This document shows, in pieces, positions 9,800 to 29,762 of a stretch of DNA of 48,481 nucleotides. Every line of letters begins with the position of its first letter. The first letter of the stretch is position 1. The DNA is from an uncultured Anaerolineales bacterium (GTDB lineage Bacteria; Chloroflexota; Anaerolineae; B4-G1), in the NCBI GenBank assembly GCA_964509655.1, contig CAZDYW010000001.1:1-48481 (forward strand), read 5' to 3'. The translations under genes and the position numbers were made by a program. The notes beneath the pieces were generated by a model that worked only from the letters and a program-made list of their open reading frames with translations, did no database searches and was not told the DNA's origin.

Positions 9800-10651
9800 T
9801 TAGGGTGTCGATGGCAGTGCCGTGAGCAGGGCGTCATCGAAGTAAACAGCGTGGTAGGTCTGTGCGAACTGCGTCTCCGCGAAGATACAGACGGTCGCTT
9901 GGCCCGATTGTCCCGTCGCGACCTCTGGGGAGAGGAGCATCACTACCCCATCATCTTGGTTGATGGTCTGTTCTTGGCCCCATTGCGCTTCATCACACCC
10001 CGCGTTGCCCTGTGGGTCTATCCCTGCCTTTACGATGTATCCGCCCTCTGTCTCCTTGACGAATCCCCTGGCGTTTACCTGGAACTGTAGGACAGTGTTG
10101 GGCTCTGCCTGCACTATTTGAAATACCCAAGCACGCAATTTCACCCAGGGCGTGGTGTCGATCTTGAGCGTCGAGCCGTTGATCTGGCGTTGAGGATCGG
10201 TGGCAGCTTGGAAGCGGGGAGCGGCGTAGGAAGTCTCAGGGTCGAATCCTTCACCGGGTTCCCAATTGACGAAGCCGCCCGTCTGCCAACCGGGAATGTC
10301 ATTTTTCCTGAGCTGATCGAAAGTAGGATTTTCAAGGGTGATCGGGGCCGGTGTAGGAGGGAGCGTCACAGTCATTCTCTCAAGGGGCGTGGCCCAGGGG
10401 GTGGGTATTTTGGTGGACGTGCTGGTTGGGCTGGGCTTGAGTGTGGCATATGGCGTGGAGCTTGGTGTAGGCGTCCAAGCGGGTGGCTCAGTGATGGTCG
10501 GTGTGAGTGAGATCGTCGGTGTCTCGGTGAGGGTTAGGTTGGGAGATACCTGTTGTGTCAATGAACGATGCACGGCATTCACCATTGCGCCTAGGATAAT
10601 GATATCGGCCAGTGCCAAAACTGCTATGATTATCCATTTTCGCCGGGACAT
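9800..10651 (-). CDS. Hypothetical membrane-anchored extracytoplasmic protein (N-terminal TM anchor, Thr/Pro-rich linker, C-terminal beta-rich domain)
   Basis: ATG at 10651 (MSRRKWIIIAVLALADIIILGAMV) with a GGAGG upstream on the minus strand. The TP-rich linker is TPTISLTPTITEPPAWTPTPSSTP. The C-terminal domain of about 180 aa looks like a carbohydrate-binding/jelly-roll fold, but the family is not identified. It is convergent with rpoD, with only 10 bp between the stops. Confidence 0.7.
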   Translation of the reverse strand: MSRRKWIIIAVLALADIIILGAMVNAVHRSLTQQVSPNLTLTETPTISLTPTITEPPAWTPTPSSTPYATLKPSPTSTSTKIPTPWATPLERMTVTLPPTPAPITLENPTFDQLRKNDIPGWQTGGFVNWEPGEGFDPETSYAAPRFQAATDPQRQINGSTLKIDTTPWVKLRAWVFQIVQAEPNTVLQFQVNARGFVKETEGGYIVKAGIDPQGNAGCDEAQWGQEQTINQDDGVVMLLSPEVATGQSGQATVCIFAETQFAQTYHAVYFDDALLTALPSTP

Positions 10652-10748
10652 GGAAGCCTCCTCTAGGACTATACATCGTAACAAGTTTACTCCATGTTTG
10701 CTATTCCGTCAACCGGACGCGGGAAGCGATCTTTATTCGGCAAGTGAT

Positions 10749-10777
10749 TTGACATCATTGCTGAGATGTGGTACACT
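10749..10777 (+). promoter_or_regulatory. Promoter candidate for the nuo cluster
   Basis: TTGACA (10749..10754), a 17-nt spacer, then TACACT (10772..10777), which is preceded by TGG (extended -10-like). Confidence 0.5.
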
Positions 10778-10844: not shown

Positions 10845-11201
10845 TTGCTGAATCAGTTTACTTTCGTCGGTGTTTTTCTTGTTATTGCACTTGCTTTTGG
10901 TGTTGCCCCGATTGCTATTGCCTTCTTCTTACGCCCCAAGAAACCCAATTCTCGTAAAGCATCTACCTATGAGTGCGGCCTAGAGCCCTACGGTGAAGCT
11001 TGGGTTCAGTTTAAGGCACAATACTACATCTTCGGCCTGGCCTTTGTCGTCTTTGACGTCGAGGCCGTTTTGTTGTTGCCATGGGCTGTGGCATATCATG
11101 CGTTGGGGCTTTATGCCGTGATCGAGGCTATGATCTTCATCCTTATTTTGCTTGGCGCTCTGGTTTATGTCTGGCGCAAGGGCGCGCTTGAGTGGATGTA
11201 A
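10845..11201 (+). CDS. nuoA: NADH-quinone oxidoreductase subunit A
   Basis: 118 aa with a TTG start 6 nt after GGAGG. It has three TM helices and the YECGLEP motif typical of NuoA/ND3. Confidence 0.9.
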   Translation: MLNQFTFVGVFLVIALAFGVAPIAIAFFLRPKKPNSRKASTYECGLEPYGEAWVQFKAQYYIFGLAFVVFDVEAVLLLPWAVAYHALGLYAVIEAMIFILILLGALVYVWRKGALEWM

Positions 11202-11277
11202 TTTAGCGCGTGGAGCGTGATGCAACTGAGGATAGGGCGATTCGATTAGCGATCGACGCTGGGATGGAGCTTTTTCT

Positions 11278-12462
11278 ATGGAATTTATCAAGGATTTGAT
11301 CCTCAATATCGGAAGTTGGTTGCAAGGGCTATTGATGGGCACGGGGTTGGCTCCTTCTTGGGTGCAGGTTATTATGCACCTCATCGGTGGAGTGGCGTTA
11401 GCCATTGTTCCGTTGGTAGCGGTGATTTTCCTCATCTGGGCTGCCCGTAAGATTGTAGGGCGAATGCAGGATCGGCTCGGTCCCAATAACTCCGGCCCTT
11501 ACCCCGGTCCTTACGCCATCTTCCAGACCTTTGCTGATGCCGTCAAGATGCTGACGAAAGAGGATGTTGTCCCCACCGCCGCCGATCGTGGGGTTTTCAA
11601 CATCGCTCCAGTGGTGATCTTGGCTTCCGCTGTGTTGGTCTGGGCTGTCATTCCTTTGGGTAAGGGACTCATCGGTGCCGATCTCAACATCGGCATTTTT
11701 TATATTCTCTCCATTGGCTCATTGAGCTTGATCGCGCTGATGATGGCGGGGTTGGGGTCCAATAACAAGTACGCTTTAGTCGGCGCTTTGCGTGCGATAG
11801 CCAATCTGATCAGCTATGAGATACCGCAGGTCATCGCCGTTATGACAGTGGTCATGGTCTCCGGTTCCTTCTCGATGCAACAGATCGTCGAAGCGCAGCA
11901 AGTGCCTTTTATCTTCGTGATGCCCTTGACCGCTTTCCTCTTCTTCGTCGGTTCCCTGGCGGAGGTGGGACGACAGCCCTACGACTTGACAGAGGCGGAT
12001 TCGGAGATTGTGGCCGGCTACTTTGTCGAGTACAGTGGGATGAAGTTTGGGCAGTTCTATCTATCGGAGTTTATGAATAACTTTGCCCTTGCTGTCATCA
12101 CCGCGACGCTTTTCCTCGGCGGGTGGCGTGGGCCATTTGTGGAAAGTGTGCCTGTTCTGGGATCGCTTTGGCTCTTACTCAAGGCATTGCTTGTTTTCTT
12201 CGTTCTCCTGTGGTTGTGGGGTACGATGCCCCGCTTGCGCATTGACCACATGTTGAGTTTCAATTGGAAGTTTTTGGTTCCTGTGGCACTGGCGAACTTG
12301 TGCGTAGTGGCCTTGGTAGGCAAAATAGTGCCGATGAGCGCTCCACCCTTAGTGCGTGCGGGAGCGCTTTTGGGGTCCAATATCCTGTTGGCATTGATTG
12401 TGTTGGCAGTTCTGGCGATTGCCGGTCGCCGAGCTCGGCGGCAGTTAGAGGTTAGTGGCTAG
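11278..12462 (+). CDS. nuoH: NADH-quinone oxidoreductase subunit H
   Basis: 394 aa with NuoH/ND1 blocks (AARKIVGRMQDRLGPN, YALVGALRAIANLISYEIP, PYDLTEADSEIVAGYFVEYSGMKF). It follows nuoA after 76 bp, with no nuoB/C/D between them. Confidence 0.93.
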   Translation: MEFIKDLILNIGSWLQGLLMGTGLAPSWVQVIMHLIGGVALAIVPLVAVIFLIWAARKIVGRMQDRLGPNNSGPYPGPYAIFQTFADAVKMLTKEDVVPTAADRGVFNIAPVVILASAVLVWAVIPLGKGLIGADLNIGIFYILSIGSLSLIALMMAGLGSNNKYALVGALRAIANLISYEIPQVIAVMTVVMVSGSFSMQQIVEAQQVPFIFVMPLTAFLFFVGSLAEVGRQPYDLTEADSEIVAGYFVEYSGMKFGQFYLSEFMNNFALAVITATLFLGGWRGPFVESVPVLGSLWLLLKALLVFFVLLWLWGTMPRLRIDHMLSFNWKFLVPVALANLCVVALVGKIVPMSAPPLVRAGALLGSNILLALIVLAVLAIAGRRARRQLEVSG

Positions 12463-12472
12463 GGATTAGACC

Positions 12473-12976
12473 ATGCAAATTACACTTCAACAAATTTTGT
12501 TCATTATTTTCGGCGCGATCACGTTGGGGGCTGCCTTGATGGTGGTGACGCGCCGCAATGTTTTCCACGCTGCACTCTTTCTCATCTTATCCTTCTTCGG
12601 TGTGGCAGGGCTTTATGTATTGCTGGAGGCCCCTTTTCTCGCCGCCGTACAGCTGTTCATTTACATTGGTGGCATCTCAATCTTGATTATCTTCGCCATC
12701 ATGCTCACACAAAACATGATGGATCCCAACTTGCCGGGAGCCAATCGCCAGTGGTGGGCTGCGGCCTTGGTGTCCGTGGCTATTTGCGGCATTCTGGGGT
12801 GGGTGGTGTTGAACCGTAATTGGGGAACAGCTAGCGCGGAAGTGCCTCAGAACACCATCACGATTTTGGGCACCGCCCTGGTGGACCCAGAAGGATTGTT
12901 GTTGCCTTTTGAAGTTGCCTCGGTCCTTCTCTTAGTAGCCCTCGTCGGTGCTGTGACTATCGCAAGGGAGCAATGA
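12473..12976 (+). CDS. nuoJ: NADH-quinone oxidoreductase subunit J
   Basis: 167 aa with a NuoJ/ND6-like pattern (VVTRRNVFHAALFLILSF..., LFIYIGGISILIIFAIML). It starts 10 bp after nuoH, with no nuoI between them. Confidence 0.9.
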   Translation: MQITLQQILFIIFGAITLGAALMVVTRRNVFHAALFLILSFFGVAGLYVLLEAPFLAAVQLFIYIGGISILIIFAIMLTQNMMDPNLPGANRQWWAAALVSVAICGILGWVVLNRNWGTASAEVPQNTITILGTALVDPEGLLLPFEVASVLLLVALVGAVTIAREQ

Positions 12977-12979
12977 TTT

Positions 12980-13288
12980 ATGGTTCCTTTAGCTTGGTAT
13001 CTTATTCTTGCAGCAGCTTTGTTCTGCATAGGATTGTATGGCGTTCTCTCGCGGCGTAATGCCGTGGCGATTTTGATGGGCGTCGAGCTGATGCTGAACG
13101 CTGTCAACATCAATCTGGTCGCCTTTTGGCGCCACCTGGAACCGGGAGCGGCGACGGGGCAAGCCTTCGCGCTTTTCGTCTACGTCGTCGCAGCCGCCGA
13201 GGCGGGTGTGGGCTTGGCGCTTATAATCGCCGTGTGGCGCACCCGTGACACTGTTGTCCTCGAAGACATCGATTTGCTCAAAGGTTAA
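12980..13288 (+). CDS. nuoK: NADH-quinone oxidoreductase subunit K
   Basis: 102 aa with the NuoK/ND4L signature ([44 protein letters not shown]). Confidence 0.93.
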
Positions 13289-13302
13289 ACACCGAGGTGA
13301 CT

Positions 13303-15711
13303 ATGGAGATTCTCAACCTTGCCTGGCTGATACCCCTCTTCCCATTTCTTGCATTTGTTTCAATAGCGATCTTCGCCCACCGGAGTCGCCGGTTAAGCCA
13401 CCAACTAACTATTGGCGGCATCGCTTTTGCTTTTCTGATCGCGCAGATTGTCTTTTGGCGGGCAGTGACTTTGCCGGTGGGTGGCGGAGAGCATGCCTTC
13501 GAGTCCTCGACTGTCCACTGGCTGGTTGCGGGCGAAGAGCGGCTTACACTCGGCGTCTACGTCGATCCGGCCACGACGGTGATGCTCTTTATGGTGCCCT
13601 TGGTCTGTATGATGATCTTCATCTACAGTGTCGGCTACATGAACTTCGGCACGCCGGAGGTGGATCCCCGTTACAGCCGCTTCTTCTGCTACCTCTCCCT
13701 CTTCGCTACCGGCATGTTGGGAATGGTGGTTTTCAATAATCTGCTGGCCTTCTTCATCTTCTGGGAGATTATGGGGACTTGTTCTTATCTCTTGATCGGT
13801 TTCTGGTATGATAAGAGCTATCCTGATCCGGATAAAATTACTCCCAAGGAGGCCGGGCTGAAGGCCTTCATTGTCACCAAGATCGGTGATTTGTTCTTTA
13901 TGCTCGGTCTGGCGCTGCTCTACGCCGAGGTGGGATCGCTGGCCTACCGGGACATCTTCGCCGCCGAGACTCTGGAGCATCTGGCCCATGCTAACTTCCT
14001 GGGAACTCAATGGTCGCTGGCCTCCGTGATCGCCCTTTTGTTGTTTGGCGGCACTGTCGGCAAGAGCGCACAGTTCCCGCTCCACGTCTGGCTGCCCGAC
14101 GCGATGGAGGGCCCCACACCCGTCTCCGCTCTCATCCACGCCGCAACGATGGTTTCAGCCGGCGTTTTTCTGGTGGTGCGTGCCTTCCCAATTTTCGCAG
14201 CGGTCGAGGGCACCCATATGACAATTGTGGCGACCATTGGGGCATTCACGGCCATCTTCTCGTCCGTCATCGCCGTCGCGCAGGATGACATCAAGGGAGT
14301 GCTGGCCTTCTCCACCATCAGTCAGTTGGGGTATATGGTTGCCGCGTTGGGTATCGGCGCTTATGTGGCTGGAGCCTTCCATCTCATCACTCACGCTTTC
14401 TTCAAGGCGCTCCTGTTCCTCAGTTCCGGCTCGGTGATCCACGGTATGGAACATGGACATCATCACGCCCACGAGCACGCGGAGCACCATGATAATCATG
14501 ATAATCATGAAGTGCATGATGAGCACGGCGAGCATGAGGAAGAGGAGTGGTTCAATCCCAATGATATGAAGAATATGGGCGGTTTGGCAAAACGTATGCC
14601 GCGTACCGCTTTACCATTTCTCGCTGGTGGGTTAGCCCTCTCTGGTTTTCCTCTGTTCACCGCTGGCTTCTGGTCGAAGGATGAGATACTGGCGCAGGCT
14701 TACGAGCTATCCCCCGCCGTCTTCTGGACGCTGGCTGTGGCCGCTGGTCTCACCGCTTTCTACACCGCGCGTCAACTCTGCTTGACCTTCCTGGGGGAGC
14801 CGCGCACCGAGGCTGCCAAGCACGCGCCGGAGAGTGTGCCGTCTATGACGACCCCCCTGGCTATTCTGGCCGTTTTCGCGATTATTTTGGGCTGGGCTGG
14901 TATTCCGGAGCACTTCCCGGTCATCGGCGGGATCATTCCCAACTGGGTCCATCACTTCGTTGGCTCGACAATCGCGGGTGGACATGCTGAGCATGCGGCG
15001 AAAGTGGCTGGACATCTCTCGGAGGCCGCAGAGGCAGGCTTTGTGTGGCAGCCATTGGTGATGAGCATCGTCTTCGCGCTGGGCGGGTTGACATTGGGCT
15101 GGCTGGTTTACGGTCGCAAGCCGATGGTGGCCGGTGAGATGGATCGGGTGGAAGCAGCAATGCGCAAAGTGGGCTTCGGGTGGCTGTACGAAGCTATGCG
15201 CGACCAATTTTACTTTGACGAGATCTACCAGGCGATAGTTGTGCGTCCCTCTATATGGTTGGCGGACGTTTTTGACACATTCGATTATGGTCGTGAAGAG
15301 GGCAAGCACGGTGTGGTAGACGGCGTAGTAGTCTTGGCCGGAAAGATTGGAAGGGCTATGTCCGACATCTCCGGTTGGCTCGACGCCAACATTGTGGACG
15401 GATTGGTCAACCTAGTCGGGCGCTTTGGAAAGGCCCTATCCTTGGTCAGCGGTTGGCTCGACGTCAACATCGTGGATGGGTTGGTCAATCTGGCGGGCAG
15501 CGCTGGAGCCCTGCTATCCAATGGGTTCAACAGCTTCGATCTCACTGTGGTGGACGGCGCCGTCAACGGCGTCGCCGATGTCGTCATGGGCGGTGGGAAG
15601 GCAATCCGCCCTATTCAGACCGGTAAGGTTCAAAACTATCTGCTGCTGGCATCCCTGATGGTGCTGGCATTAATCTTGACATTCTTTATGATATTGTTCT
15701 TGCAAATCTAG
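13303..15711 (+). CDS. nuoL: NADH-quinone oxidoreductase subunit L. This is an unusually long form (802 aa) with a His-rich insert and a repeated lateral-helix region.
   Basis: NuoL/ND5 blocks are present (FFIFWEIMGTCSYLLIGFWY, GKSAQFPLHVWLPDAMEGPTPVSALIHAATMV, ISQLGYM, HAFFKALLFL, MGGL). I prefer the ATG at 13303 (MEILNLAWLIPL), which is preceded by GAGGTG. The track start is the GTG at 13297. Confidence 0.93.
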   Translation: MEILNLAWLIPLFPFLAFVSIAIFAHRSRRLSHQLTIGGIAFAFLIAQIVFWRAVTLPVGGGEHAFESSTVHWLVAGEERLTLGVYVDPATTVMLFMVPLVCMMIFIYSVGYMNFGTPEVDPRYSRFFCYLSLFATGMLGMVVFNNLLAFFIFWEIMGTCSYLLIGFWYDKSYPDPDKITPKEAGLKAFIVTKIGDLFFMLGLALLYAEVGSLAYRDIFAAETLEHLAHANFLGTQWSLASVIALLLFGGTVGKSAQFPLHVWLPDAMEGPTPVSALIHAATMVSAGVFLVVRAFPIFAAVEGTHMTIVATIGAFTAIFSSVIAVAQDDIKGVLAFSTISQLGYMVAALGIGAYVAGAFHLITHAFFKALLFLSSGSVIHGMEHGHHHAHEHAEHHDNHDNHEVHDEHGEHEEEEWFNPNDMKNMGGLAKRMPRTALPFLAGGLALSGFPLFTAGFWSKDEILAQAYELSPAVFWTLAVAAGLTAFYTARQLCLTFLGEPRTEAAKHAPESVPSMTTPLAILAVFAIILGWAGIPEHFPVIGGIIPNWVHHFVGSTIAGGHAEHAAKVAGHLSEAAEAGFVWQPLVMSIVFALGGLTLGWLVYGRKPMVAGEMDRVEAAMRKVGFGWLYEAMRDQFYFDEIYQAIVVRPSIWLADVFDTFDYGREEGKHGVVDGVVVLAGKIGRAMSDISGWLDANIVDGLVNLVGRFGKALSLVSGWLDVNIVDGLVNLAGSAGALLSNGFNSFDLTVVDGAVNGVADVVMGGGKAIRPIQTGKVQNYLLLASLMVLALILTFFMILFLQI

Positions 15712-15759
15712 CAAGTAGGTAAGTGGGCAAGTGGGCTAGTAGGCAAGTGAACAAGTAGC
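15712..15759. repeat. Six tandem 8-nt units (consensus CAAGTRGG) immediately after the nuoL stop
   Basis: The units are caagtagg taagtggg caagtggg ctagtagg caagtgaa caagtagc. Downstream, cacttgc (15772..15778) and two cttgcag copies are complementary to, or related to, the unit. Confidence 0.8.
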
Positions 15760-15821
15760 ATAATAAGTCGGTCACTTGCAGACCTGCAAACTTGCAGACT
15801 CAAAAAGAAGGAGAGCATACT

Positions 15822-17348
15822 ATGTTTCCAATTCTGAGCGTTACCCTGTTTGCCCCGCTGGTGGGCGCCCTACTCATTTTGGTCATCCCGCGTGAGGATG
15901 TTAAAACAATCCGGCGGGTGGGGACCGCGTTTGCTTTCCTGACGCTCATCCTCACAACTATCATCTGGGTGAGTGTGGCGCAGTCAGGGCCCGGCGGTAT
16001 GCAGTTTGAGGAGAACTATCCCTGGATCAAGGCATTCAACGTGCGGTTTCACCTCGGGGTAGATGGTCTCAGTGCGCCTTTGCTCTTCTTGACCGCTCTG
16101 TTGACCACTCTTGTGACGTTCTACTCATCTTACACCATTGACGACCGGGTCAAGGAATACTATTTCTTGTTCTTGTTGCTTGAGATGGGTATGAGCGGTG
16201 TATTCCTTTCCCTGGACCTGGTGCTATTCTACGTCTTCTGGGAGATTGGTCTGGTGCCGATGTTCCTGCTTATCGGTGTGTGGGGCGGAAAGCGCCGTCT
16301 GTACGCGGCCATCAAGTTCTTCCTCTACACGCTCGTGGGCAGCGTGGCGATGTTGCTAGCCATCATCGGCGTTTACTTCCAGACCGGCACCTTCGACATA
16401 CTGGAGGCAGCGGCCGCGCAACCCTTCGCCGGTAACTTCACCTGGGCCAGTATGGCTTTTTGGGCCTTTTTCATCGCCTTTGCCATCAAGGTGCCCGCTT
16501 TCCCCTTCCACACCTGGTTGCCGGATGCTCATACGGAAGCGCCAACCTCGGGCAGTGTCATTCTGGCAGGCGTCTTACTGAAGTTGGGGGCTTACGGTCT
16601 GATGCGCGTCACGTTGCCCTTCTTCCCGGCGCAGTTCAAATACTTCGTCGTCAACGTGCCAATTATCCCCATCATGGCGGTGATGAGCATCGCCTACGGA
16701 GCGATGGTCTGTATGGCGCAGTGGGACCTCAAGCGGCTGGTAGCCTACTCATCGGTGGCTCATATGGGCTACGTTACACTGGGGTTGTGTGCGGCAGCGG
16801 CTGGTATCGGTATGCTGGACGATCCGGCGAACCTCAGCGCGGCGGCCTCTGGCCTCAGCGGCGCGGCATTCCAGATGTTCGCTCATGGCATCATCACGGG
16901 TGGGATGTTTTTCCTGGTCGGTATGATCTACGATCGGGCCCACACGCGAGACTTAAAAGCATTTGGCGGATTGGGTAAGCAAATCCCTTATTATTACGGG
17001 ATCGTGATGGTAACTGGATTTGCGTCCTTGGGGCTTCCTGGCTTGGCGGGCTTCTGGAGTGAGTTCTTCGTCTTCCGGGGCGCAATCCGCTTTATCCCCT
17101 TGGCCGCTTTCATCGGTGTTATCGGAGTAGTCTTCACCGCTGCCTATATCCTGTGGAAAGTTGTACAGCACCTCTTCTTGGGGGATCTGGACAAGGAGAA
17201 GTGGGGCAAGCTGACCGACATGACCTGGTGGGAGAAGGTGACGATGTGGCCTTTGGTGATCATCATGATTTTCCTCGGTCTCTATCCCGCTCCCCTGCTG
17301 GATATGTTCAACGCTGCGCTCACAGGGATTTTGCGGGCGCTGCCGTAA
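15822..17348 (+). CDS. nuoM: NADH-quinone oxidoreductase subunit M
   Basis: NuoM/ND4 blocks are present (FYVFWEIGLVPMFLLIGVWGG, AFAIKVPAFPFHTWLPDAHTEAPTSGSVILAGVLLKLG, LVAYSSVAHMGY). The ATG at 15822 (MFPILSV) follows AAGGAGAG. The track start (TTG 15792) is probably an upstream extension. Confidence 0.93.
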   Translation: MFPILSVTLFAPLVGALLILVIPREDVKTIRRVGTAFAFLTLILTTIIWVSVAQSGPGGMQFEENYPWIKAFNVRFHLGVDGLSAPLLFLTALLTTLVTFYSSYTIDDRVKEYYFLFLLLEMGMSGVFLSLDLVLFYVFWEIGLVPMFLLIGVWGGKRRLYAAIKFFLYTLVGSVAMLLAIIGVYFQTGTFDILEAAAAQPFAGNFTWASMAFWAFFIAFAIKVPAFPFHTWLPDAHTEAPTSGSVILAGVLLKLGAYGLMRVTLPFFPAQFKYFVVNVPIIPIMAVMSIAYGAMVCMAQWDLKRLVAYSSVAHMGYVTLGLCAAAAGIGMLDDPANLSAAASGLSGAAFQMFAHGIITGGMFFLVGMIYDRAHTRDLKAFGGLGKQIPYYYGIVMVTGFASLGLPGLAGFWSEFFVFRGAIRFIPLAAFIGVIGVVFTAAYILWKVVQHLFLGDLDKEKWGKLTDMTWWEKVTMWPLVIIMIFLGLYPAPLLDMFNAALTGILRALP

Positions 17349-17447
17349 AGAAACCAGGTTTTTATCACTAGAAACAAGTGAATTTCTTGCCTTTTGAGGT
17401 ATTCCGTGATGTCGGAAGCGCCTCCCTGAGCAAAAAACCTGGTTTCT
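17349..17447. repeat. Perfect 15-bp inverted repeat that brackets almost the whole nuoM-nuoN intercistronic region
   Basis: AGAAACCAGGTTTTT (17349..17363) and AAAAACCTGGTTTCT (17433..17447) are exact reverse complements, separated by 69 nt. The right arm ends 6 nt before the nuoN SD. Confidence 0.8.
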
Positions 17448-17465
17448 ACGTATAGGAGGACAACG

Positions 17466-18941
17466 TTGTTCGGAGAACCGATACTCACGTTAGGCCAGAC
17501 GCTATGGCTGCTCTCGCCGGAACTGGTGCTTCTCTTGACAGGTTTCCTCATTATGGGGCTGGATGCTATCCACCCGCAAAAAGAGGAAAAGCGCTGGGTG
17601 CCTTATGTTGCCTTGGGAGGGCTAGCCGTTGCCCTGATCGCATCTATCACCCTTTGGGGTTGTAACACCAGGGTGCTCTTCATGTTTTCCTGTGACCCTT
17701 TCTCGTTGGTCGTTAATATGGTGGCTATGTTGGCTGTGGGGCTTGTGATACTCTCATCCGATCCGTACATTCGAGTGCATAGTCGGTATCAGGGTGAGTT
17801 TTACGCTCTTCTGCTCTTCTCAGCTCTAGCCATCTGCCTCTTGGGTGGGGCGACTAACTTGATTATGGTCTTCTTGGCTTTTGATTTCCTGAGCATCACG
17901 TCATATATTCTCACCGGTTACTTGCGTGAGGATCAAAAGTCAACAGAGGCTGCGATCAAGTATTTTCTCTACGGCGCAGCTCTCTCCGCAATGATGCTTT
18001 ATGGAATGTCCTGGTTCTATGGGCTGACCGGCTCCACAGATCTGAACGGTATTGCAATGGTTCTCATGGAAGGGGAGCGTGTGCTGCGTCCAATCATCTT
18101 GCCAGCCTTGATCTTTATCGCCGCTGGCTTCGCCTTCAAAATCGCCGCTGTGCCATTTCACCAATGGGCTCCTGATGCTTATGAAGGTGCCCCGACTCCG
18201 GTAACGGCTTTTCTCTCTGTCGGGCCTAAGATCGGTGGCTTCGCCGTCATTCTACGGGTGCTTTTAACCGCCTTGCCTGGTGATCTGGTGAACCTGGCGA
18301 TGGATTGGCGGGCACTGCTGATGGCGGTCTCTATGCTCACGATGACGGTCGGCAACCTGGTAGCGCTTTGGCAGAAGAACATCAAGCGCCTGCTGGCTTA
18401 CTCCAGCATCGCCCAGGCCGGTTACATCCTTATCGGCGTGGTAGCAGCCTCTCCTCGGGGAGCGACAGCGGTTTTGCTCTACTTGGCGGCTTATGCGCTG
18501 ACCAACTTGGGCGCTTTCGCCGCTATCATCGCTTTCTCCAACCAGACCGGCTCCGATGCCATTGAGGACTACGCTGGGCTGAGCCAGCGAGCACCGGTGA
18601 TGGCCCTGGTGTTGATCATCTGCCTGCTCTCGTTAGGAGGCCTCCCACCGACGGCCGGCTTCGTCGGCAAGCTGTGGCTCTTCTCCGCGGCGATCGAGGA
18701 TGGGTTAATCTGGCTCGCTGTGGTCGGCGTGATCAACAACGTTATCTCTCTATCCTACTACTGGAAGGTCATCCGCGCGATGTACCTCACCCCTGCGCAG
18801 AACGGGGAACCGCTGTCTACCTCGCCCACAGTGACAGTAGCGCTGGGCGCGACGACGGTGGGCGTGCTTATCATTGGCGTCTTCCCAAGCCCGCTCCTGT
18901 CGCTTGTCCAGGCTGCTGCAGTGACCCTTTTCGGTGGGTGA
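17466..18941 (+). CDS. nuoN: NADH-quinone oxidoreductase subunit N
   Basis: 491 aa with a TTG start 6 nt after AGGAGG (17454..17459). NuoN/ND2 blocks are present (AAIKYFLYGA, FKIAAVPFHQWAPDAYEGAPTPVTAFL, LLAYSSIAQAGY). Confidence 0.9.
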   Translation: MFGEPILTLGQTLWLLSPELVLLLTGFLIMGLDAIHPQKEEKRWVPYVALGGLAVALIASITLWGCNTRVLFMFSCDPFSLVVNMVAMLAVGLVILSSDPYIRVHSRYQGEFYALLLFSALAICLLGGATNLIMVFLAFDFLSITSYILTGYLREDQKSTEAAIKYFLYGAALSAMMLYGMSWFYGLTGSTDLNGIAMVLMEGERVLRPIILPALIFIAAGFAFKIAAVPFHQWAPDAYEGAPTPVTAFLSVGPKIGGFAVILRVLLTALPGDLVNLAMDWRALLMAVSMLTMTVGNLVALWQKNIKRLLAYSSIAQAGYILIGVVAASPRGATAVLLYLAAYALTNLGAFAAIIAFSNQTGSDAIEDYAGLSQRAPVMALVLIICLLSLGGLPPTAGFVGKLWLFSAAIEDGLIWLAVVGVINNVISLSYYWKVIRAMYLTPAQNGEPLSTSPTVTVALGATTVGVLIIGVFPSPLLSLVQAAAVTLFGG

Positions 18942-19017
18942 CCCCCCGGCTCAAGGTAGAAAATGAAAGCCCAACCTCTCGCTACGCCATCCTAAACCCA
19001 ATTAAAATGATGCGGGT

Positions 19018-19046
19018 TTGACAAATTAAGGGGCGCGTGCTAGAAT
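19018..19046 (+). promoter_or_regulatory. Promoter candidate for the moaD-like/aor operon
   Basis: TTGACA (19018..19023), a 17-nt spacer, then TAGAAT (19041..19046). The predicted leader to the ATG at 19164 is about 110 nt. Confidence 0.5.
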
Positions 19047-19163
19047 CTTCCGGTCGCGTCTTGATTATGGCGCGTCTGGGACGCGCTTGGCGAGAGGTTG
19101 TTGATTCCCAAGACTGGCGTCTCTGGACTGTGTAGTGAAGTGCGAATTGAAGTGGCGGACTTG

Positions 19164-19454
19164 ATGAGAATCTCTGTTCAGGTGCAGTTGTTTGGACTTC
19201 CCCGTCTGATAGCGGGGGAGAAACAGATAAAGCTAAGACTGGAGCAGGATGCTACCTTCCGAGATGTTGTGCGCGTGTTGGCCAGACTGTACCCGGACAT
19301 GATCGGGGACGTGATCCAAGCTGACGGCGAAACGCTACAGGCGCCCAATATCCTTAACCTTGACGGAAGGCGGATGATCCAAGCTCATCAGATGGATGAG
19401 GGTCTTAGTGCAGGTGACCGAATCATACTAATGTCTATGTCAGCAGGAGGCTGA
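19164..19454 (+). CDS. MoaD/ThiS-family ubiquitin-fold sulfur-carrier-like protein (96 aa) ending in Gly-Gly
   Basis: MRISVQVQLFGLPRLIAGEKQIKL...DRIILMSMSAGG-stop. The size, the beta-grasp-like pattern and the C-terminal GG are typical of MoaD/ThiS. Its stop lies directly before the AOR start. The track start (19098) is an upstream extension, so the start is uncertain. Confidence 0.78.
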   Translation: MRISVQVQLFGLPRLIAGEKQIKLRLEQDATFRDVVRVLARLYPDMIGDVIQADGETLQAPNILNLDGRRMIQAHQMDEGLSAGDRIILMSMSAGG

Positions 19455-19457
19455 TTG

Positions 19458-21347
19458 ATGCAAGGCTACAGTGGAAGAATTTTGCACATTGACTTGACTG
19501 ATCGCAAGACGTGGGTCGAGTCGAAACCGGAGGCGTGGTACAAGACCTATATCGGTGGCGTCTCGATGGCTACCCGACTTTGTTGGGAGAATATTGAACC
19601 GGGCTGTGACCCGCTATCACCGGACAATCCGATCTGCATTGCGAACGGGATCTTCGCGGGGACTCCCGTGCCAGTGGGGGGAAAATACGGTATGGCGTCC
19701 AAGTCGCCATTGACTGGCTTCATCGGCGATAGCCTATCGAGCAGCTGGTTCACAGTCGCGCTCAAACGGGCGCGATGGGACGGAATCGTCATTCACGGAG
19801 CAAGCGAGGACTGGGTCAGGGTCTTCATCGACGATGAAAAGATTGAATTTCGTGACGCTTCTCACCTGAGGGGCCTGACCACCACGGAGACCGAAGATAC
19901 AATTCGGGAAGCGTTCGGCGATGATCAGGTACGGTCAGCCGTTATCGGACCGGCCGGTGAGAACCTGTCACGCATTGCCAACGTGAGCAACGATGGTCGT
20001 AAGGCAGGTCGCACAGGCCACGGCGCGGTGTGGGGCTCGAAGAAGCTTAAGGCGCTTTCCGTGCGTGGCACCAACGGGGTGCAGGTGGCTGATCCTGAGA
20101 AGCTGCTTGAGCTTTCATACGATATTCTCCAAGCGGCGCAGGGGCCGCACACTCAGAAGTATCGAATCCTCGGCACCTCGTCGAACGTGCTGAACATGAA
20201 CGAGCTGGGACTGCTGCCAACTAGAAACTACCAGGAAGGCGTGTTTGAGGAAGCTGAACTGGTCAGTGGCGAGTACCTGCACGAACACTACAAAGCGAAG
20301 ACGATCGCCTGCGCTCAGTGCCCCATCGCCTGCGAGCAGGTCGGACGTCTGAAGGAAGGGCCGTACGCTCCTGCGATGGGACACATCGAGTACGAATCCC
20401 TCTTCGCTCTATCCTCGAACTGCGGCGTTAGCGATATGGAAGCCTCGATCAAGGCCATCGTAAACTGCAACGAGCTGGGTATGGATACCATGAGCACCGG
20501 CGTGACCATCAGCTGGGCGATGGAGTGTTACGAGCGGGGCATCTTCTCGGAGGAAGACTTTGCGGGCGAGCGGTACCCAGAGGGCTTCGAAGCGAACTTC
20601 GGCAATGGTATGGCGATGGTGAGATTGACCGAGATGATCGCTTACCGGGACGGCACCATGGGCAACCTGCTGGCCGAGGGGACGAAGCGCGCGAGCGCGA
20701 CCCTAGACGAGGAGCGGGGCACGGAAAGCTATAAGTGGGCGATGAACATCAAAGGTTTGGAGACCCCCGGCTACGACGCCCGATCGCTCAAGACGTTCTC
20801 TGTCGGGCTCGCGGTGGGAACGCGTGGCGGGTGTCACAACCGGTCGGCGGCGTATGATCCCGACATCAAGGGCCAAGTAGATCGGTTCAGCGTCGACGAG
20901 ACCCGAGGAGAGCTGGCAAAGAGCACGGAGGAATACGCAGCCGTGTATGATACGCTGCCCCTGTGTAAGTTCATTCGTCGCTGCTTCACCGGAAAAGCGG
21001 ATCGCGAGGGAGCCTGGCCAGCTATTGCCAATCTGATCAACGCCACGACGGGCTGGGACTTCGACTACGACGCCGTGGACTTGATTGGCGAGCGGGCCCA
21101 CACGATGAAGAAGGCCTTCAACATCCGCGAGGGCTGGACGAGAGAAGATGATCACCTACCGTATCGGTGGCAGCACGAGCCGATGACGAAGGGAGTCTCG
21201 GCCGGTCACGTGGTGACCGATGAGGAATTGGAGTACCTCAAGGATCTCTACTACGAGGCCAAGGGCTGGACTGAGGACGGTTTGATCCCAAAGGAGAGAT
21301 TAGAGGAATTGGGGATGGAAGACGTCGCAGAAGAGATTGGTGTATAG
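19458..21347 (+). CDS. aor: Aldehyde:ferredoxin oxidoreductase family (tungsto-/molybdopterin enzyme)
   Basis: 629 aa. It has an AOR N-terminal domain (GRILHIDLTDRK..., GGKYGMASKSPLTG), the [4Fe-4S] motif CAQCPIAC plus a distal Cys, and pterin-binding blocks (GLETPGYDARSLK, GGCHNRSAAYD). The ATG at 19458 is 7 nt after GGAGG. Confidence 0.93.
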   Translation: MQGYSGRILHIDLTDRKTWVESKPEAWYKTYIGGVSMATRLCWENIEPGCDPLSPDNPICIANGIFAGTPVPVGGKYGMASKSPLTGFIGDSLSSSWFTVALKRARWDGIVIHGASEDWVRVFIDDEKIEFRDASHLRGLTTTETEDTIREAFGDDQVRSAVIGPAGENLSRIANVSNDGRKAGRTGHGAVWGSKKLKALSVRGTNGVQVADPEKLLELSYDILQAAQGPHTQKYRILGTSSNVLNMNELGLLPTRNYQEGVFEEAELVSGEYLHEHYKAKTIACAQCPIACEQVGRLKEGPYAPAMGHIEYESLFALSSNCGVSDMEASIKAIVNCNELGMDTMSTGVTISWAMECYERGIFSEEDFAGERYPEGFEANFGNGMAMVRLTEMIAYRDGTMGNLLAEGTKRASATLDEERGTESYKWAMNIKGLETPGYDARSLKTFSVGLAVGTRGGCHNRSAAYDPDIKGQVDRFSVDETRGELAKSTEEYAAVYDTLPLCKFIRRCFTGKADREGAWPAIANLINATTGWDFDYDAVDLIGERAHTMKKAFNIREGWTREDDHLPYRWQHEPMTKGVSAGHVVTDEELEYLKDLYYEAKGWTEDGLIPKERLEELGMEDVAEEIGV

Positions 21348-21357
21348 GAGAAACGTA

Positions 21358-21852
21358 ATGGTTCTTCCTTCAACTTCGAAGCACGAGTATATAGCGTGTG
21401 ATGCCGAGAAGTGCGTCGGCTGTCAGATATGCGAGTACGTCTGCTCATACAACAAGACAGGCGAATTCAACACATTTCGCAGCCGGATCCGTACCGTGCG
21501 TGAGCACAAGATTCTAATGACGGCGGTGGCCTGCCGCACGTGCGAGGATGCGCCGTGCGTAATCGCTTGTCCCCGCGATGCTTTGACCCAGGATGCGGAT
21601 ACTGGCGTGATCCGCGTGGACACAGGACGTTGTGACGGGTGCGCGTGGTGTATCGAGGCCTGCGACTTCGGTGCTATCTCCATCAACCCCCGGACCAAGC
21701 TGGCCGAGATGTGTGACCTGTGTGAGGACGAGGAGGATGGCCCCCAGTGCGTCAAGTGGTGTCCGAAGGAGGCGCTCGAGGTCACGATCCCCGATCGGAG
21801 AGCTCAGCGGGCGCGGCGCAAGCGGGCGATCGAGGAAGTCCTCGGGCGGTGA
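21358..21852 (+). CDS. Four-cluster [4Fe-4S] ferredoxin-type electron-transfer subunit (DmsB/HybA/AorA-like)
   Basis: Four Cys groups are present: CVGCQICEYVC, CRTCEDAPCVIACP, CDGCAWCIEAC and CDLCEDEEDGPQCVKWCP. The ATG at 21358 follows AGGAG. The track start 21337 overlaps aor. Confidence 0.88.
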   Translation: MVLPSTSKHEYIACDAEKCVGCQICEYVCSYNKTGEFNTFRSRIRTVREHKILMTAVACRTCEDAPCVIACPRDALTQDADTGVIRVDTGRCDGCAWCIEACDFGAISINPRTKLAEMCDLCEDEEDGPQCVKWCPKEALEVTIPDRRAQRARRKRAIEEVLGR

Positions 21853-21966
21853 GGTCGCGGATGATATAGCCTATCGTCGGGCGCGGTTGTGTCACTGGGA
21901 GCGCGATTACGGGATGTTCCGGTGGCGCGTCCTCGCTTGACACTGTGAGTTCCGAGATGTAGAGAG

Positions 21967-21996
21967 CGGGTCTGAACGTCGACACCCTCAGACCCG
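21967..21996 (+). other. 9-bp stem-loop between the AOR-ferredoxin genes and hdrA (possible terminator, processing site or leader structure)
   Basis: CGGGTCTGA (21967..21975), a 12-nt loop, then TCAGACCCG (21988..21996). The following sequence is pyrimidine-rich (ttcctttatt) but is not a clean U-tract. Confidence 0.35.
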
Positions 21997-22022
21997 ATAC
22001 GTTCCTTTATTGGGAGGACAGT

Positions 22023-24536
22023 ATGGCAGGAGATAACGGAAACGAAGAAGTGCGCACGGGCGTGTACGTGTGTCACTGCGGTTCCAACATCGCCGGGGTT
22101 ATCGATCCCAAAGCCGTGGTCGAGTACGCAGCGACACTTCCCGGCGTGGTCCGGGCGGTTGAGACTCCTTACGCCTGTGCAGACAGCGGTCAGAGTGTCA
22201 TCAGAGAGGACATCGAGAAGTATGACCTGAACCGGGTCGTCGTGTCGGCATGCTCCGTGCGGATGCACGAGCCGACCTTCCGCTCGGTCGTCGCCGAGGC
22301 GGGGCTGAACCCGTTCTTGATGGAGATGGCCAACATCCGCGAGCAGTGCACGTGGGCCCATGGTCACGATGAGGAGGGGGCCCTGGAGAAGGCGAAGAGC
22401 CTGACGGCAGCGGCTGTGGCGAAGGCTCGATTTTTGACACCGTTGGACATGATCAAGGTGCCGGTCACCAAGCGGGCCATGGTCATCGGCGGTGGCGTGG
22501 CAGGCATCAGCGCGGCTCTGGATCTGGGTGATCAGGGCATCGAGACGATCTTGGTGGAAAAGGAGCCTACCATCGGAGGGGTGATGGCGCAGTTGAACAA
22601 GACCTTTCCCACGATGGACTGTAGCATATGAATACTCGCCCCCAAGATGGTTGACGCGTCGCGTCACCCGAAGGTAGATGTAAGAACGTTCACGGAAGTG
22701 GAGCGAGTCGAAGGATTCGTCGGCAATTTCAAGGTCCAGCTACGCGAGAAATCGCGGTACGTTTACGAAGATCGGTGCAACGGCTGCGGCGAATGCGCAG
22801 ACGTGTGTCCAATCGAGGTGCCCAACTACTTCGAGCTGAGCCTGGCCCCCCGCAGAGCAATCGACGTACCGATGAGCCAATCGGTGCCCCTGGTCTACAA
22901 CGTCGACATGGACGCCTGCATCGAATGCTACAAGTGCGTTGAGGCGTGCGGCGAACTGGACGCGATCCACTTCGGCATGGAGGATGATCTCGTCTGGGAG
23001 GACGTCGGTTCAATTGTCGTGGCCACGGGCTTCGACCACTTCGATCCCACGGCGATGTCGGAGTATGGCTACGGACGCTTCCCCAACGTGATCACGTCGA
23101 TCGAGATGGAACGGCTCAATAACTCTGCCGGCCCGACGGGCGGTGAGCTGATGCGGCCCAGCGATGGTGAGGTGCCGGAGCGCCTGGCCATCATCAACTG
23201 CGTAGGCTCGCGCGACAAACGGTTCAACCCGTCGTGCTCCAACTTTTGCTGCATGTACGCGATCAAGAACGCCGTTCTGCTCAAGCAGGCCTATCCTGAT
23301 ATGGACCTCAGCCTCTACTACATCGATATCCGGACGCCGTCCAAAGGATACGAGGAGTTCTACAACCGCGCGCGTGAGATGGGCATCCGTTTCATCCAGG
23401 GTCGCCCCGGACTGATCACCGAGGATCCCGATACCCGCAATCTGTTTGTCGAGTCGGAGGATAGAGACCTGGGCCAGGTCACCGAAAGCGAGTACGACAT
23501 GGTGATGCTGAACCAGGCTGCCGTGCCTCAGCCTGACGTCGACTCTATCAGCTCCGTGCTCAATATCACCCAGAGCCCCGGAGGGTGGTTCATGGAGTAT
23601 CACCCGAAGCTGCGGCCGCTCGACACGCCGACCGATGGCGTGTTCCTGGCCGGCGCGTGTCAGGGGCCGAAGGACATCCCGTCCAGCGTGTCGCAGGGAT
23701 CGGGTGCGGCTGCCCGAGCCGGACGAGTGGTCCACGCCGATGAGTGGGAGATTGAGCCCGTGATCGCCGCCGTGTGGGAGGATCGCTGCATCAGCGCACA
23801 GGGCAAGAAGTGCGGCCTCTGTGTGCGAGCGTGCCCGTACGGCGCGATTGAGTACGAAGAGGGAAAGGCGCCCAACATCATCACCGCCAAGTGTCACGGC
23901 TGCGGCGGGTGCGTGGCAGAGTGTCCCCATAACGCGATGACCCAGTTGCACTTCACGGATGCTCAGATTCTGGCGCAGATGCAGACCCTGCTGGCCGACA
24001 AGCCGGAGGAGAAGATCCTGGCCTTCCGCTGCCATTGGTGTTCCTATGGCGGCGCAGACCTGGCCGGAGTCAGCCACTTCGAATACTCGTCCAACGAGCG
24101 CGGCCTACGCGTCATGTGCTCCGCCCGCATGGACGCTGACTTCATCTATGAGGCGTTCCGCCTCGGGGCGGGCGCGGTTCTCTTCTCCGGCTGCCATCCG
24201 CAGGACTGTCACTACATCACCGGGCAGCGTGTTGGCGCGCGAAGAGCGGAGCGGCTGTTGAGGCGGTTTGAGAGGATGGGTATGACGCCTGGGCGCTTCC
24301 GCGTCGAGTGGATCAGTGCGGCCGAAGGTGACAAGTACGCACGGGTGATCAACGAGATGCAAGAGGTGCTGGATTCCGTGACCAGAGAGGAATTGCTGGA
24401 GGAGATCGAGGAATTGCGGCCGGATATGGCGAAGAGAGCTCGGCGTATGCGCCAGGTGCCGTTGGTCGAGGAGGCCTCGGACTTCGCAGAGGAGATCGCG
24501 GAGGCGCGCAGGGCGGGAGAGCCGGAAGCCGTGTAG
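22023..24536 (+). CDS. hdrA: Heterodisulfide reductase subunit A homologue with a C-terminal MvhD domain. It is a predicted selenoprotein with TGA at 22629..22631 read as Sec (837 residues).
   Basis: Two track ORFs (22023..22631 and 22647..24536) are in the same frame and separated only by TGA. The read-through product is colinear with HdrA. It has the N-terminal VCHCGSNIAG...ACS.RMHEP...REQCTWAH domain, the GGGVAGISAA FAD fold, FPTMDCSI-U-ILAPKM, an inserted ferredoxin (CNGCGECADVCP / CIECYKCVEAC), CSNFCC, GACQGPKDIP, a C-terminal 2x[4Fe-4S] domain (CGLCVRACP / CHGCGGCVAECP), and an MvhD/FlpD domain (LAFRCHWCSYGGAD...SGCHPQDCHY). Confidence 0.88.
22649..22668 (+). other. Candidate bacterial SECIS hairpin downstream of the hdrA UGA
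   Basis: GGU(U)GACGC - GUC - GCGUCACC forms 8 bp with one bulged U and has G and U in the apical loop. The hairpin starts 17 nt after the UGA, and the loop begins 26 nt after it. Confidence 0.5.
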
Positions 24537-24603
24537 GTTCACGGGGACTAGGACCACATGAGAGTCCCTTCTTTTGCAACAGAAGACGGTAGGAGAACGC
24601 CTA

Positions 24604-25563
24604 ATGGCAGATCAAAGGTCTCAAACTCAAACCTTCGCTGACCAGGTCCGTGCGATTCCCGGTGGAGAGCATCTGGAGATGTGTTACTCGTGCGGCACGT
24701 GTGTCAGCAAGTGTATGATTCAACAGAAGGTCGAGCCGGAGTACAACCCACGCCGCCTGCTGCGTATGGTGATCATGGACATGCAAGAGGAGGCATTCAA
24801 GAGCCCAACAACGTGGCTCTGCTCCGCTTGCGACCTATGCTATCCAGCTTGCCCGCAGGAAATTCACATATCGGGTGTCATCGGCGCGGTCAAACAGCTG
24901 GCCGTCGAGGCCGGCTATGAGTCGCCGCTGGAGACCGTCTCGGTGGACGAGTCGCTGTGCTCCGGCTGCGCCATCTGCGTGATGACATGTCCGTACGAAG
25001 CGCCCCACTTGGTGGAGAAGGAAGTCGATGGTGTGATGGACCGTCTCTCCGAGGTGGATGCGAACGCCTGCATGGGATGTGGCATCTGCGTCGCGGCATG
25101 CCCGATGGGTGCTATCTCGCGGCCCGGCGTAGCGAACGAGGAAATCCGGGCACAGCTCGACGTGCCCAGGCGAAACGGTGCGCCACGCATGGTGGCTTTC
25201 GTGTGTGACTGGTGCCTCCGAGCAGATGCAGACGTCACGCTTCTCGAGAGTTACCCTGAGAACGTGCAGGTAGTGCATATACCTTGTACTGGACGCATCG
25301 ATCCAGAGATGGCGCTTATGGCGCTGGGTTCAGACATCGACGGAGTGCTGGTCTGCGGCTGCGCGCCCGATGAGTGCCACTACCAGCGCGGCACGATGGT
25401 CAGCAGCTGCAAGATCGGGCTGTTGAATCGGGCGTTGGAGCAGATGAATATGGGCGACGGCCGGGTGCGCTTCGTACAGATCGGCACACAGGACCGTGGC
25501 CGCATCCGGAGCGAGATAGACCATATGATGGAGCACCTGGTGGCCTGGAAGGGGGCGGTGTAA
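24604..25563 (+). CDS. Three-module iron-sulfur protein: HdrC-like N-terminus, a 2x[4Fe-4S] ferredoxin, and a C-terminal MvhD/FlpD domain
   Basis: The modules are CYSCGTCVSKC...CSACDLCYPACP (HdrC-like), then CSGCAICVMTCP / CMGCGICVAACP, then VAFVCDWCLRADAD...IPCTGRIDPEM...VLVCGCAPDECHY (MvhD). The ATG at 24604 follows AGGAG. The track start (TTG 24574) is an extension. Confidence 0.85.
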   Translation: MADQRSQTQTFADQVRAIPGGEHLEMCYSCGTCVSKCMIQQKVEPEYNPRRLLRMVIMDMQEEAFKSPTTWLCSACDLCYPACPQEIHISGVIGAVKQLAVEAGYESPLETVSVDESLCSGCAICVMTCPYEAPHLVEKEVDGVMDRLSEVDANACMGCGICVAACPMGAISRPGVANEEIRAQLDVPRRNGAPRMVAFVCDWCLRADADVTLLESYPENVQVVHIPCTGRIDPEMALMALGSDIDGVLVCGCAPDECHYQRGTMVSSCKIGLLNRALEQMNMGDGRVRFVQIGTQDRGRIRSEIDHMMEHLVAWKGAV

Positions 25564-26573
25564 TGGCGAAAGCAAAGCCCAAACTCGCATTCTACTGGGC
25601 GGCCAGCTGCGGCGGGTGCGAGATCACGATCACCGAGTTGGGCATGCAGCTCATAGCAACGGGTGAGAAGGTCGACATCGTCTTCTGGCCCTGTTTGATG
25701 GACTTCAAGTACAGCGACGTCGAGGCGCTGGAGGACGGCGAGATCGACGTATGCTTCTTCAACGGGGCGATTCGTTCGAGCGAGAACGAGCACATCGCCC
25801 ACCTGCTCCGCCAGAAGTCGAAGGTCCTCGTGTCCTTCGGGTCATGCTCCCACACCGGAGGGATCCCGGGCCTGGCGAACTTCTACGATGCCGAGTCGAT
25901 CCTGGAGCGGGTCTACGGGTCGACACGCCCCAGTACCGCCTCGTCGCTGGACGACTCGCGTGGGACCCGCCCCACTCCGTCGGTGGAGATGCCAGAGGGC
26001 ACGATCGAGATTCCCACTTTCTACGACCAGGTCTTGACGCTGGATCAGACGGTGGAGGTGGACTACTTTATGCCTGGTTGTCCGCCGGTAGCCGACCAGG
26101 TGTGGAACGTCTTCCAGACGGTCTTGGATGGGGGGCTGCCGGAGCGGCGGGCCACTATCGGTGTCGATGCTAAGACGAACTGCGACGTCTGTCCTCGAGA
26201 GAAGGGAGAGGGCGGATTCCGCGTGAAGGAATGGAAGCGACCGCACGAGGTCGAGCTAGACCAAGAGGTCTGTTTCTTGGCGCAGGGTGTTATCTGCTGT
26301 GGACCGGTCACCCGAGCGGGGTGTGGACTGCCTTGTATCAGCGGCAACATGCCGTGCCGCGGCTGCTACGGTCCGCCGGAGGGGGTCGTCGATCAGGGGG
26401 CGAAGTTGTTCAGCGCGATCGGAGCGTTGATCGATACCGACGAACCAGAAGCCGTGCAGCAGATCATGGATACGGTTGTTGACCCGGCCGGGCTCAGCTA
26501 CCGGTTCGGGTTGGCAAACTCTCTCCTGAATGCGCTGAAGTACGGAAAGAATTCTGAAGAGGATGAAGTATGA
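25563..26573 (+). CDS. mvhG: [NiFe] hydrogenase small subunit, group 3 (MvhG-like)
   Basis: MAKAKPKLAFYWAASCGGCEI, GSCSHTGGIPG, PGCPP, and a C-terminal Cys-rich medial/distal cluster region (CDVCPREK, CCGPVTRAGCGLPCISGNMPCRGCYGP). The start overlaps the upstream stop (TAATG). The track ORF 25374.. is a 5' extension. Confidence 0.9.
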   Translation: MAKAKPKLAFYWAASCGGCEITITELGMQLIATGEKVDIVFWPCLMDFKYSDVEALEDGEIDVCFFNGAIRSSENEHIAHLLRQKSKVLVSFGSCSHTGGIPGLANFYDAESILERVYGSTRPSTASSLDDSRGTRPTPSVEMPEGTIEIPTFYDQVLTLDQTVEVDYFMPGCPPVADQVWNVFQTVLDGGLPERRATIGVDAKTNCDVCPREKGEGGFRVKEWKRPHEVELDQEVCFLAQGVICCGPVTRAGCGLPCISGNMPCRGCYGPPEGVVDQGAKLFSAIGALIDTDEPEAVQQIMDTVVDPAGLSYRFGLANSLLNALKYGKNSEEDEV

Positions 26574-28036: not shown

Positions 28037-28044
28037 GAGAGGGT

Positions 28045-29502: not shown

Positions 29503-29733
29503 GTCAACGAGTCTCCTATCGCAATTAACGGCGCATCAGTAGAAAGTGTGCGCCCGATTCGAGCCTATGTCATTGTACCATGATTCGCTTGCGGGTCCAA
29601 CTGCGCTCAGACCATATGGCTGACCTCCCCAGCCGGGCAAACAAGATCTTGCCGAGGGCGAGCGAGGGTTCATTCTAATGCTTATCCTCACATACGCAAC
29701 CCTTTCAAAATGTCTGTCTTCGCCAAACGTGAT

Positions 29734-29762
29734 TTGACCTCATTCATAGAGTGTGCTATAAT
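29734..29762 (+). promoter_or_regulatory. Promoter candidate for the atp (F0 plus delta) operon
   Basis: TTGACC (29734..29739), a 17-nt spacer, then TATAAT (29757..29762). The first ATG of the operon lies only 11 nt after the -10 hexamer. Confidence 0.55.

Follow-up and report, generated by a model that had tools for sequence, protein, structure and literature searches.

The window analysed here, 48,481 nucleotides of an uncultured Anaerolineales bacterium, is one contig (C1) of a 3.40-Mb metagenome-assembled genome (MAG) that is distributed over 628 contigs and is 87.8% complete. Between positions 10845 and 18941 it carries a cluster of seven complex I genes, all on the plus strand and in the order nuoA-H-J-K-L-M-N, as assigned from the listing of open reading frames and from Pfam and NCBIfam scans (Table 1). 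All seven membrane subunits are present: NuoH, K, L, M and N score above their NCBIfam/TIGRFAM cut-offs, and NuoA and NuoJ above those of Pfam. The intergenic gaps, in the order of the genes, are 76, 10, 3, 8, 80 and 117 bp. An earlier reading of the letters alone (the original prediction) had pointed out that this cluster contains only membrane-arm genes, with 76 bp between nuoA and nuoH and 10 bp between nuoH and nuoJ, and both distances are exact. It had also stated that nuoB, C, D and I are missing from the cluster, in agreement with our tblastn searches against the whole genome, in which NuoB, NuoCD and NuoI had no match in the window. The sole PF01058 match within the window, at 25608-26117, is a hydrogenase small subunit.

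Conserved charged residues are retained in NuoL, NuoK and NuoA, and the proton-channel residues of NuoL and NuoK were inspected one by one: WE157, K256, H362/H366/K370 and K461/D462 of NuoL are invariant in an alignment of 52 sequences, and the membrane glutamates E36 and E74 of NuoK are both there. The original prediction had proposed that the NuoH loops contacting NuoB and NuoD be checked for conservation. These loops, which also line the quinone cavity, are indeed kept, and all three of them (QDRLGPN, ADAVKMLTKED and RQPYDLTEADSEIVAGYFVEYSGMKFG) line up with their counterparts in E. coli NuoH. There is one copy each of nuoA and nuoH in the whole genome, and tblastn finds a single locus for each of nuoJ, K, L, M, N and I.

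The quinone module and the two-locus layout

The quinone-module genes that are missing from the cluster have not been lost but are encoded on another contig of the same MAG, C213 (5.1 kb), as a three-gene unit of nuoB, a fused nuoCD and nuoI that is followed by a RicT-like gene and then by an acsE-like methyltransferase gene. Complex-I-type nuoB and nuoD are single copy in the whole genome. The ligands of cluster N2 are intact in NuoB (the tandem CC, GACA and GCPP), and NuoI carries the 4Fe-4S motif CxxCxxCxxxCP twice. NuoCD contains GPQHPSTHG and DRLDY, which by our own count on the alignment correspond to the quinone-site residues His38 and Tyr87 of T. thermophilus Nqo4. We considered whether C213 might be bin contamination and rejected this, because the contig is collinear with one from the sister species at 93.6% nucleotide identity, a divergence like that of the window from the same species (91.7% identity).

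The same division of genes recurs among the relatives of this organism. For the synteny comparison suggested by the original prediction we searched 41 genomes: our own and those of 40 relatives drawn from its genus, family and order. Each of the 22 genomes with nuoA carries it immediately 5' of nuoH, on one contig with it. Fused nuoCD is on a contig other than that of nuoA in every one of the 20 genomes that have both, even when contigs exceed 100 kb. The two halves also tend to occur together: nuoA-type nuoH and nuoCD are both present in 21 of the 41 genomes and both absent from 17, with only one of them found in 3. In eight relatives nuoB-nuoCD-nuoI forms a stand-alone three-gene unit with no E, F or G alongside.

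More widely, all 80 named Anaerolineae loci that we fetched with NuoH read A-H-J-K-L-M(-M)-N. They cover Anaerolineales, Thermoflexales, Ardenticatenaceae, Promineifilaceae, Aggregatilineaceae and others, and no nuoB, CD or I was detectable in their flanks within 10 kb, at least 9 kb upstream of nuoH being available in 45 of them. A phylum-wide search with a chimeric A+H+B+CD query provides two examples among the matches listed, most of which were to NuoD: in a closed single-contig genome of the same class (G138), nuoA+H and nuoCD are ~558 kb apart, and a genome from a different class of Chloroflexota (G084) has an unfused nuoD with nuoH directly after it, the order of contiguous 11-gene operons. 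About a quarter of the related genomes (G003-G006, G009, G011-G013, G017, G022 and G029) also have a second, adjacent nuoD-nuoH pair (~250 bits) that comes without nuoA and is not found in our own genome; it looks like a group-4 membrane-bound hydrogenase or an Mbx-like complex.

A layout of this kind has been described. According to McGonigle et al. 2020 (PMC7117926) and PMC9040806, which summarise the work of Chadwick, Hemp, Fischer and Orphan (2018, ISME J), the "2M" complex I of Chloroflexi (Anaerolineae) has nuoBCDI apart from the membrane operon, with nuoC and nuoD fused. We are confident that in Anaerolineae the genes of complex I are normally laid out at two loci, as already published. 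The novelty that the original prediction implied falls away, since the arrangement is class-wide and already in the literature. Of the two alternatives it offered, partners elsewhere or a different electron-input module, the first is borne out by the genome search: there is a single nuoB-nuoCD-nuoI unit, on C213, and by the reasoning of the prediction itself this makes the cluster an ordinary split operon. For the second we found no support, as discussed below.

In the enzyme that we propose, the window cluster would be the operon for the membrane domain (NuoA, H, J, K, L, M and N) of the only complex I of this organism, and the quinone-reducing module would come from the three genes on C213, a second operon at another place in the chromosome. 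Electrons would enter at the NuoI/NuoB iron-sulfur chain, a membrane quinone, presumably menaquinone, would be reduced at the NuoCD/NuoB/NuoH site, and proton translocation would be driven through NuoL, M and N. On this reading, the products of both loci would assemble physically into one enzyme. Three points weigh against this interpretation. With a MAG of this completeness and fragmentation, another nuo locus, or a set of canonical nuoEFG genes, could conceivably have escaped the assembly; a NuoE-like/NuoF-like pair on a further contig, C47, could in principle act as an N-module; and no obvious operator is common to the regions upstream of nuoA and nuoB, although both have promoter-like hexamers.

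Table 1. Features of the membrane-arm cluster, its spacers and promoter-like sites (window positions), and of the quinone-module genes (positions on contig C213).
Feature	Position	Strand	Description
promoter-like site 5' of nuoA	10749..10777	+	TTGACA-17-TACACT, extended -10 TG; consensus match only
nuoA	10845..11201	+	118 aa; PF00507, 124 bits; ECGLEP and FDVE motifs
nuoH	11278..12462	+	394 aa; PF00146, 357 bits
nuoJ	12473..12976	+	167 aa; PF00499, 131 bits
nuoK	12980..13288	+	102 aa; PF00420; NF004322, 133 bits (cut-off 128)
nuoL	13297..15711	+	804 aa; NF005141, 596 bits, above cut-off
lateral helix of NuoL, four 26-aa (78-nt) units in phase	15313..15624	+	NuoL aa 673-776
stem-loop in the nuoL-nuoM spacer	15711..15800	+	complementary 8-mer repeats; -31.1 kcal/mol, z = -2.6
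nuoM	15792..17348	+	518 aa, single copy; TIGR01972, 562 bits
nuoN	17466..18941	+	491 aa; TIGR01770, 419 bits
promoter-like site of the next unit (MoaD-AOR-Hdr-Mvh)	19018..19046	+	TTGACA-17-TAGAAT, 11/12 positions; consensus match only
nuoB	C213 ~156-803		approximate start placed by comparison with the sister genome
nuoCD (fused)	C213 807-2594		595 aa
nuoI	C213 2594-3136

Electron input and alternative partners

The original prediction had noted that NuoE, F and G are missing from the window, and the canonical N-module is in fact absent from the genome as a whole. NuoE-like (PF01257) and NuoF-like (PF01512) genes occur once each and only on C47, where the order (L011:244-6050, minus strand) is cooF, cooS, NuoE-like, NuoF-like and a gene for a 324-aa 2Fe-2S/4Fe-4S protein. 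The NuoE-like gene, part of which is given as N in the genome sequence, matches PF01257 with 136 bits. The NuoF-like gene is a 671-aa frame in which PF01512 and the NADH_4Fe-4S domain are preceded by a long N-terminal extension and followed by two C-terminal ferredoxin (4Fe-4S) domains, a domain layout that matches soluble HydB/HndC/HylB-type subunits and not respiratory NuoF. The 324-aa protein has a 2Fe-2S domain (Fer2_4), 4Fe-4S domains and a weak match to Fer4_Nqo3. Taken as a whole, the C47 cluster is probably a soluble NAD(P)H/ferredoxin module linked to carbon monoxide dehydrogenase (CODH). The NuoG-type domain PF10588 has no match anywhere in the genome at its 87.8% completeness, and the NuoE, F and G module that defines the 14-subunit NADH:quinone oxidoreductase is not found in it. 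Because PF10588 is missing and the NuoE- and NuoF-like genes are of the soluble type and belong to a CODH cluster, we assign the enzyme, on its predicted subunits, as an 11-subunit complex I. Its 11 core subunits without an N-module are set apart from group-4 hydrogenases by the lack of NiFe ligands and by the presence of nuoA.

Enzymes of the complex I type with 11 subunits and no NuoEFG are widely distributed, and the literature has not settled what donates electrons to them directly (PMC11238625, PMC5736913). In the present case CODH, AOR and Hdr/Mvh are encoded and there is no NuoG-type subunit, and on these grounds of gene content we give reduced ferredoxin an even chance of being the donor.

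One alternative is that the complex is NADH-dependent after all, with the NuoE-like, NuoF-like and Fer2_4/Fer4 proteins of C47 docking on NuoI/NuoCD as a non-canonical N-module. The genome does encode all three, side by side with cooS/cooF, and Spero et al. reported many Chloroflexi with 13 of the 14 complex I subunits in which NuoG alone is missing. Nevertheless, we regard this arrangement as unlikely, given the soluble-type architecture of the NuoF-like protein, the lack of the NuoG-type N5 domain (PF10588), and the embedding of the C47 genes in a CODH operon that adjoins neither nuo locus.

Still less probable is that NuoB, NuoCD and NuoI are not the partners of the membrane arm and that some other module, for instance the neighbouring AOR/Hdr/Mvh enzymes, supplies its electrons. 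What lends this idea its appeal is proximity, as a MoaD-AOR-Fer4-HdrA-MvhD block adjoins the nuo membrane operon in two sub-lineages: in the window it follows nuoN, and in five loci of the other sub-lineage (L025, L028, L029, L059 and L075) it lies upstream of nuoA. Yet in the window this block (MoaD-AOR-ferredoxin-HdrA-MvhD-MvhG-MvhA, 10.8 kb, 18943-29748) is an indel relative to the sister species: synteny with its locus L012 breaks at 18942/18943, and L012 resumes directly with the homolog of what lies from window position 29749 onward. For most other loci, the flanking sequence at hand contained no detectable homolog of the block. The block is moreover preceded by a promoter-like site of its own, the interface loops of NuoH are canonical, and nuoB-CD-I is intact, single-copy and phyletically co-occurring with the nuoA-H type of locus. 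The neighbourhood fits a link between producer and consumer of ferredoxin within a pathway better than it fits docking, which suggests at most a pathway-level association and not a substitute input module. HdrA is read in two adjacent frames, 22023-22631 and 22647-24536.

Finally, that the split is an artefact of assembly or binning, with C213 foreign or a contiguous operon broken apart, is hardly credible despite the 628 contigs of the MAG and the position of nuoB near the end of a contig of only 5.1 kb, since nuoB, C and D could not fit into the 76-bp gap between nuoA and nuoH, long contigs and a closed genome show the split as well, and C213 diverges from the sister genome just as the window does.

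The lateral helix of NuoL and the number of nuoM genes

In one respect the window differs from most of its class. Among 53 complete Anaerolineae clusters, 40 have two nuoM genes; the window and 11 other loci have one. In a NuoM tree rooted on NuoN there are two paralog clades, Ma, which adjoins nuoL, and Mb, which adjoins nuoN, and the tree places every single-M locus within Ma, where two 2M relatives contribute the sister sequences. The nuoM of the window is thus placed by the tree as the ortholog of the L-proximal paralog of 2M clusters and, as the single-M loci nest inside Ma, the tree shows that the single-M state arose by secondary loss of Mb. Whole-genome searches of six single-M genomes (our own, G041, G042, G044, G046 and G048) found no further antiporter-like gene, and in our own genome such genes are limited to nuoL, M and N, with tblastn in agreement. 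A weak PF00361 match on contig C154 (24 bits) was considered as a fourth antiporter-like subunit and rejected, its open reading frame having no Pfam match when scanned.

NuoL itself is ~190 aa longer than that of E. coli, and its lateral helix (HL) contains four phased 26-aa units. Their DNA identity is 36-64% over all pairs (45-64% for units 1-3), a divergence because of which Tandem Repeats Finder did not pick up the 78-nt periodicity. As a measure of helix length we used the distance between two near-invariant columns, P651 and Q774 of the window NuoL (proline to QTG), which is 123 aa in the window. In all 39 of the 2M loci outside the family of the window it is 65-67 residues, or 2.0 units, although total NuoL length there ranges from 688 to 897 aa; canonical NdhF1, counted on the alignment with the window NuoL, has ~1 unit. 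Inside the family, the two 2M loci have 3 units each, and the counts in single-M loci are 2 (one locus), 3 (two), 4 (six) and 5 (one), the lengths rising in steps of ~26 aa.

The published reading, as summarised in PMC7117926 and PMC9040806, is that one 26-aa insertion in HL accommodates one extra pumping (antiporter-like) subunit, and Yu et al. 2022 already noted NuoLs that have the insertion but no extra NuoM in the cluster. Our counts go beyond this picture in that, within the family of the window, how many units the lateral helix has does not track how many nuoM genes are present. An AlphaFold2 model of NuoL from the 52-sequence alignment has low predicted local distance difference test (pLDDT) values, 44-65, at residues 660-790, with helices predicted at 637-664, 673-695 and 700-770. 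One could imagine that the helix still serves as a length ruler, with the product of the single nuoM occupying several adjacent positions, so that more than four pumping subunits would be built from three antiporter-like genes and stoichiometry would evolve through the number of helix units, but we think this combined scenario quite improbable. More mundanely, the surplus units may fold back, or they may have some other binding partner.

A further peculiarity of NuoL is a ~34-aa loop insertion rich in His, Asp and Glu (HGHHHAHEHAEHHDNHDNHEVHDEHGEHEEEE) between two transmembrane helices, at residues 386-421 (window 14452-14559). The loop, which is modelled with a pLDDT of ~50 and differs in length among Anaerolineae, may bind metal.

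Transcription signals, significance and relation to known complexes

The single promoter candidate of the original prediction, 5' of nuoA, exists as a consensus match and is kept in the sister species (L012). The site at 19018-19046, which precedes the AOR block, is the stronger of the two and marks the 3' boundary of the nuo unit. The promoter scan as a whole was not above chance, with 9 sites against 5.7 +/- 2.3 in shuffled sequences. In the spacer between nuoL and nuoM (15711-15800), (GCAAGTRG)n repeats lie opposite (ACTTGCAG)n repeats and would form a long imperfect stem-loop immediately 5' of the nuoM ribosome-binding site. Divergent from nuoA, on the minus strand at 9800-10684, is a 294-aa open reading frame with no Pfam or NCBIfam match and with 88.5% amino acid identity in the sister species. 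In two members of the family, L013 and L014, the membrane-arm operon has an insertion between nuoJ and nuoK, a gene for a 694-aa membrane H+-pyrophosphatase (L013:9012-11096; PF03030, 731 bits).

Our results imply that a nuo cluster restricted to the membrane arm is, in Anaerolineae, not to be taken as a degenerate or re-purposed complex I, and that annotation pipelines will count complex I wrongly in this abundant class if they expect all its genes in a single operon. They also confirm that the present anaerobes, which carry Wood-Ljungdahl, CODH and AOR genes, depend on a NuoEFG-less enzyme whose donor the field has yet to settle. The decoupling of helix units from nuoM number, if followed structurally, offers a natural test of whether HL sets the number of pumping modules, and this side observation on the helix could matter more than the split operon itself.

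Of the known systems, the Chloroflexi 2M complex I is like the present one in having nuoBCDI apart from the membrane operon, nuoCD fused, 26-aa insertions in HL, and its home in the class Anaerolineae. It differs in having a second nuoM between nuoL and nuoN, where the window has one (the N-proximal Mb being lost), and in having two HL units, in the 39 loci counted outside the family of the window, versus four here. Complex I-like enzymes with 11 subunits share the lack of NuoEFG, the conserved Q- and P-modules and, presumably, ferredoxin as donor; however, their genes are contiguous in a single operon, with nuoH after nuoD (e.g., G084), whereas here they are divided into A-HJKLMN and B-CD-I.

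The canonical 14-gene nuoA-N operon of E. coli and Thermus thermophilus encodes 11 homologous core subunits with shared catalytic residues, but it differs in the presence of NuoEFG, in forming a single operon, in a lateral helix of one unit and in its three antiporter-like subunits. The cyanobacterial and chloroplast NDH-1 (PDB 6hum among others) also has 11 core subunits, no N-module, ferredoxin as donor and genes spread over several loci, and its NdhF1 (6hum_F, cyanobacterial) and NdhK are the best PDB matches of the window NuoL and of the C213 NuoB, respectively; NuoCD instead matches Thermus Nqo4 best. The cyanobacterial genes are split differently, into ndhAIGE, ndhCKJ, ndhH, ndhB and ndhD/F, and NdhS, V and O are among the accessory subunits of NDH-1.

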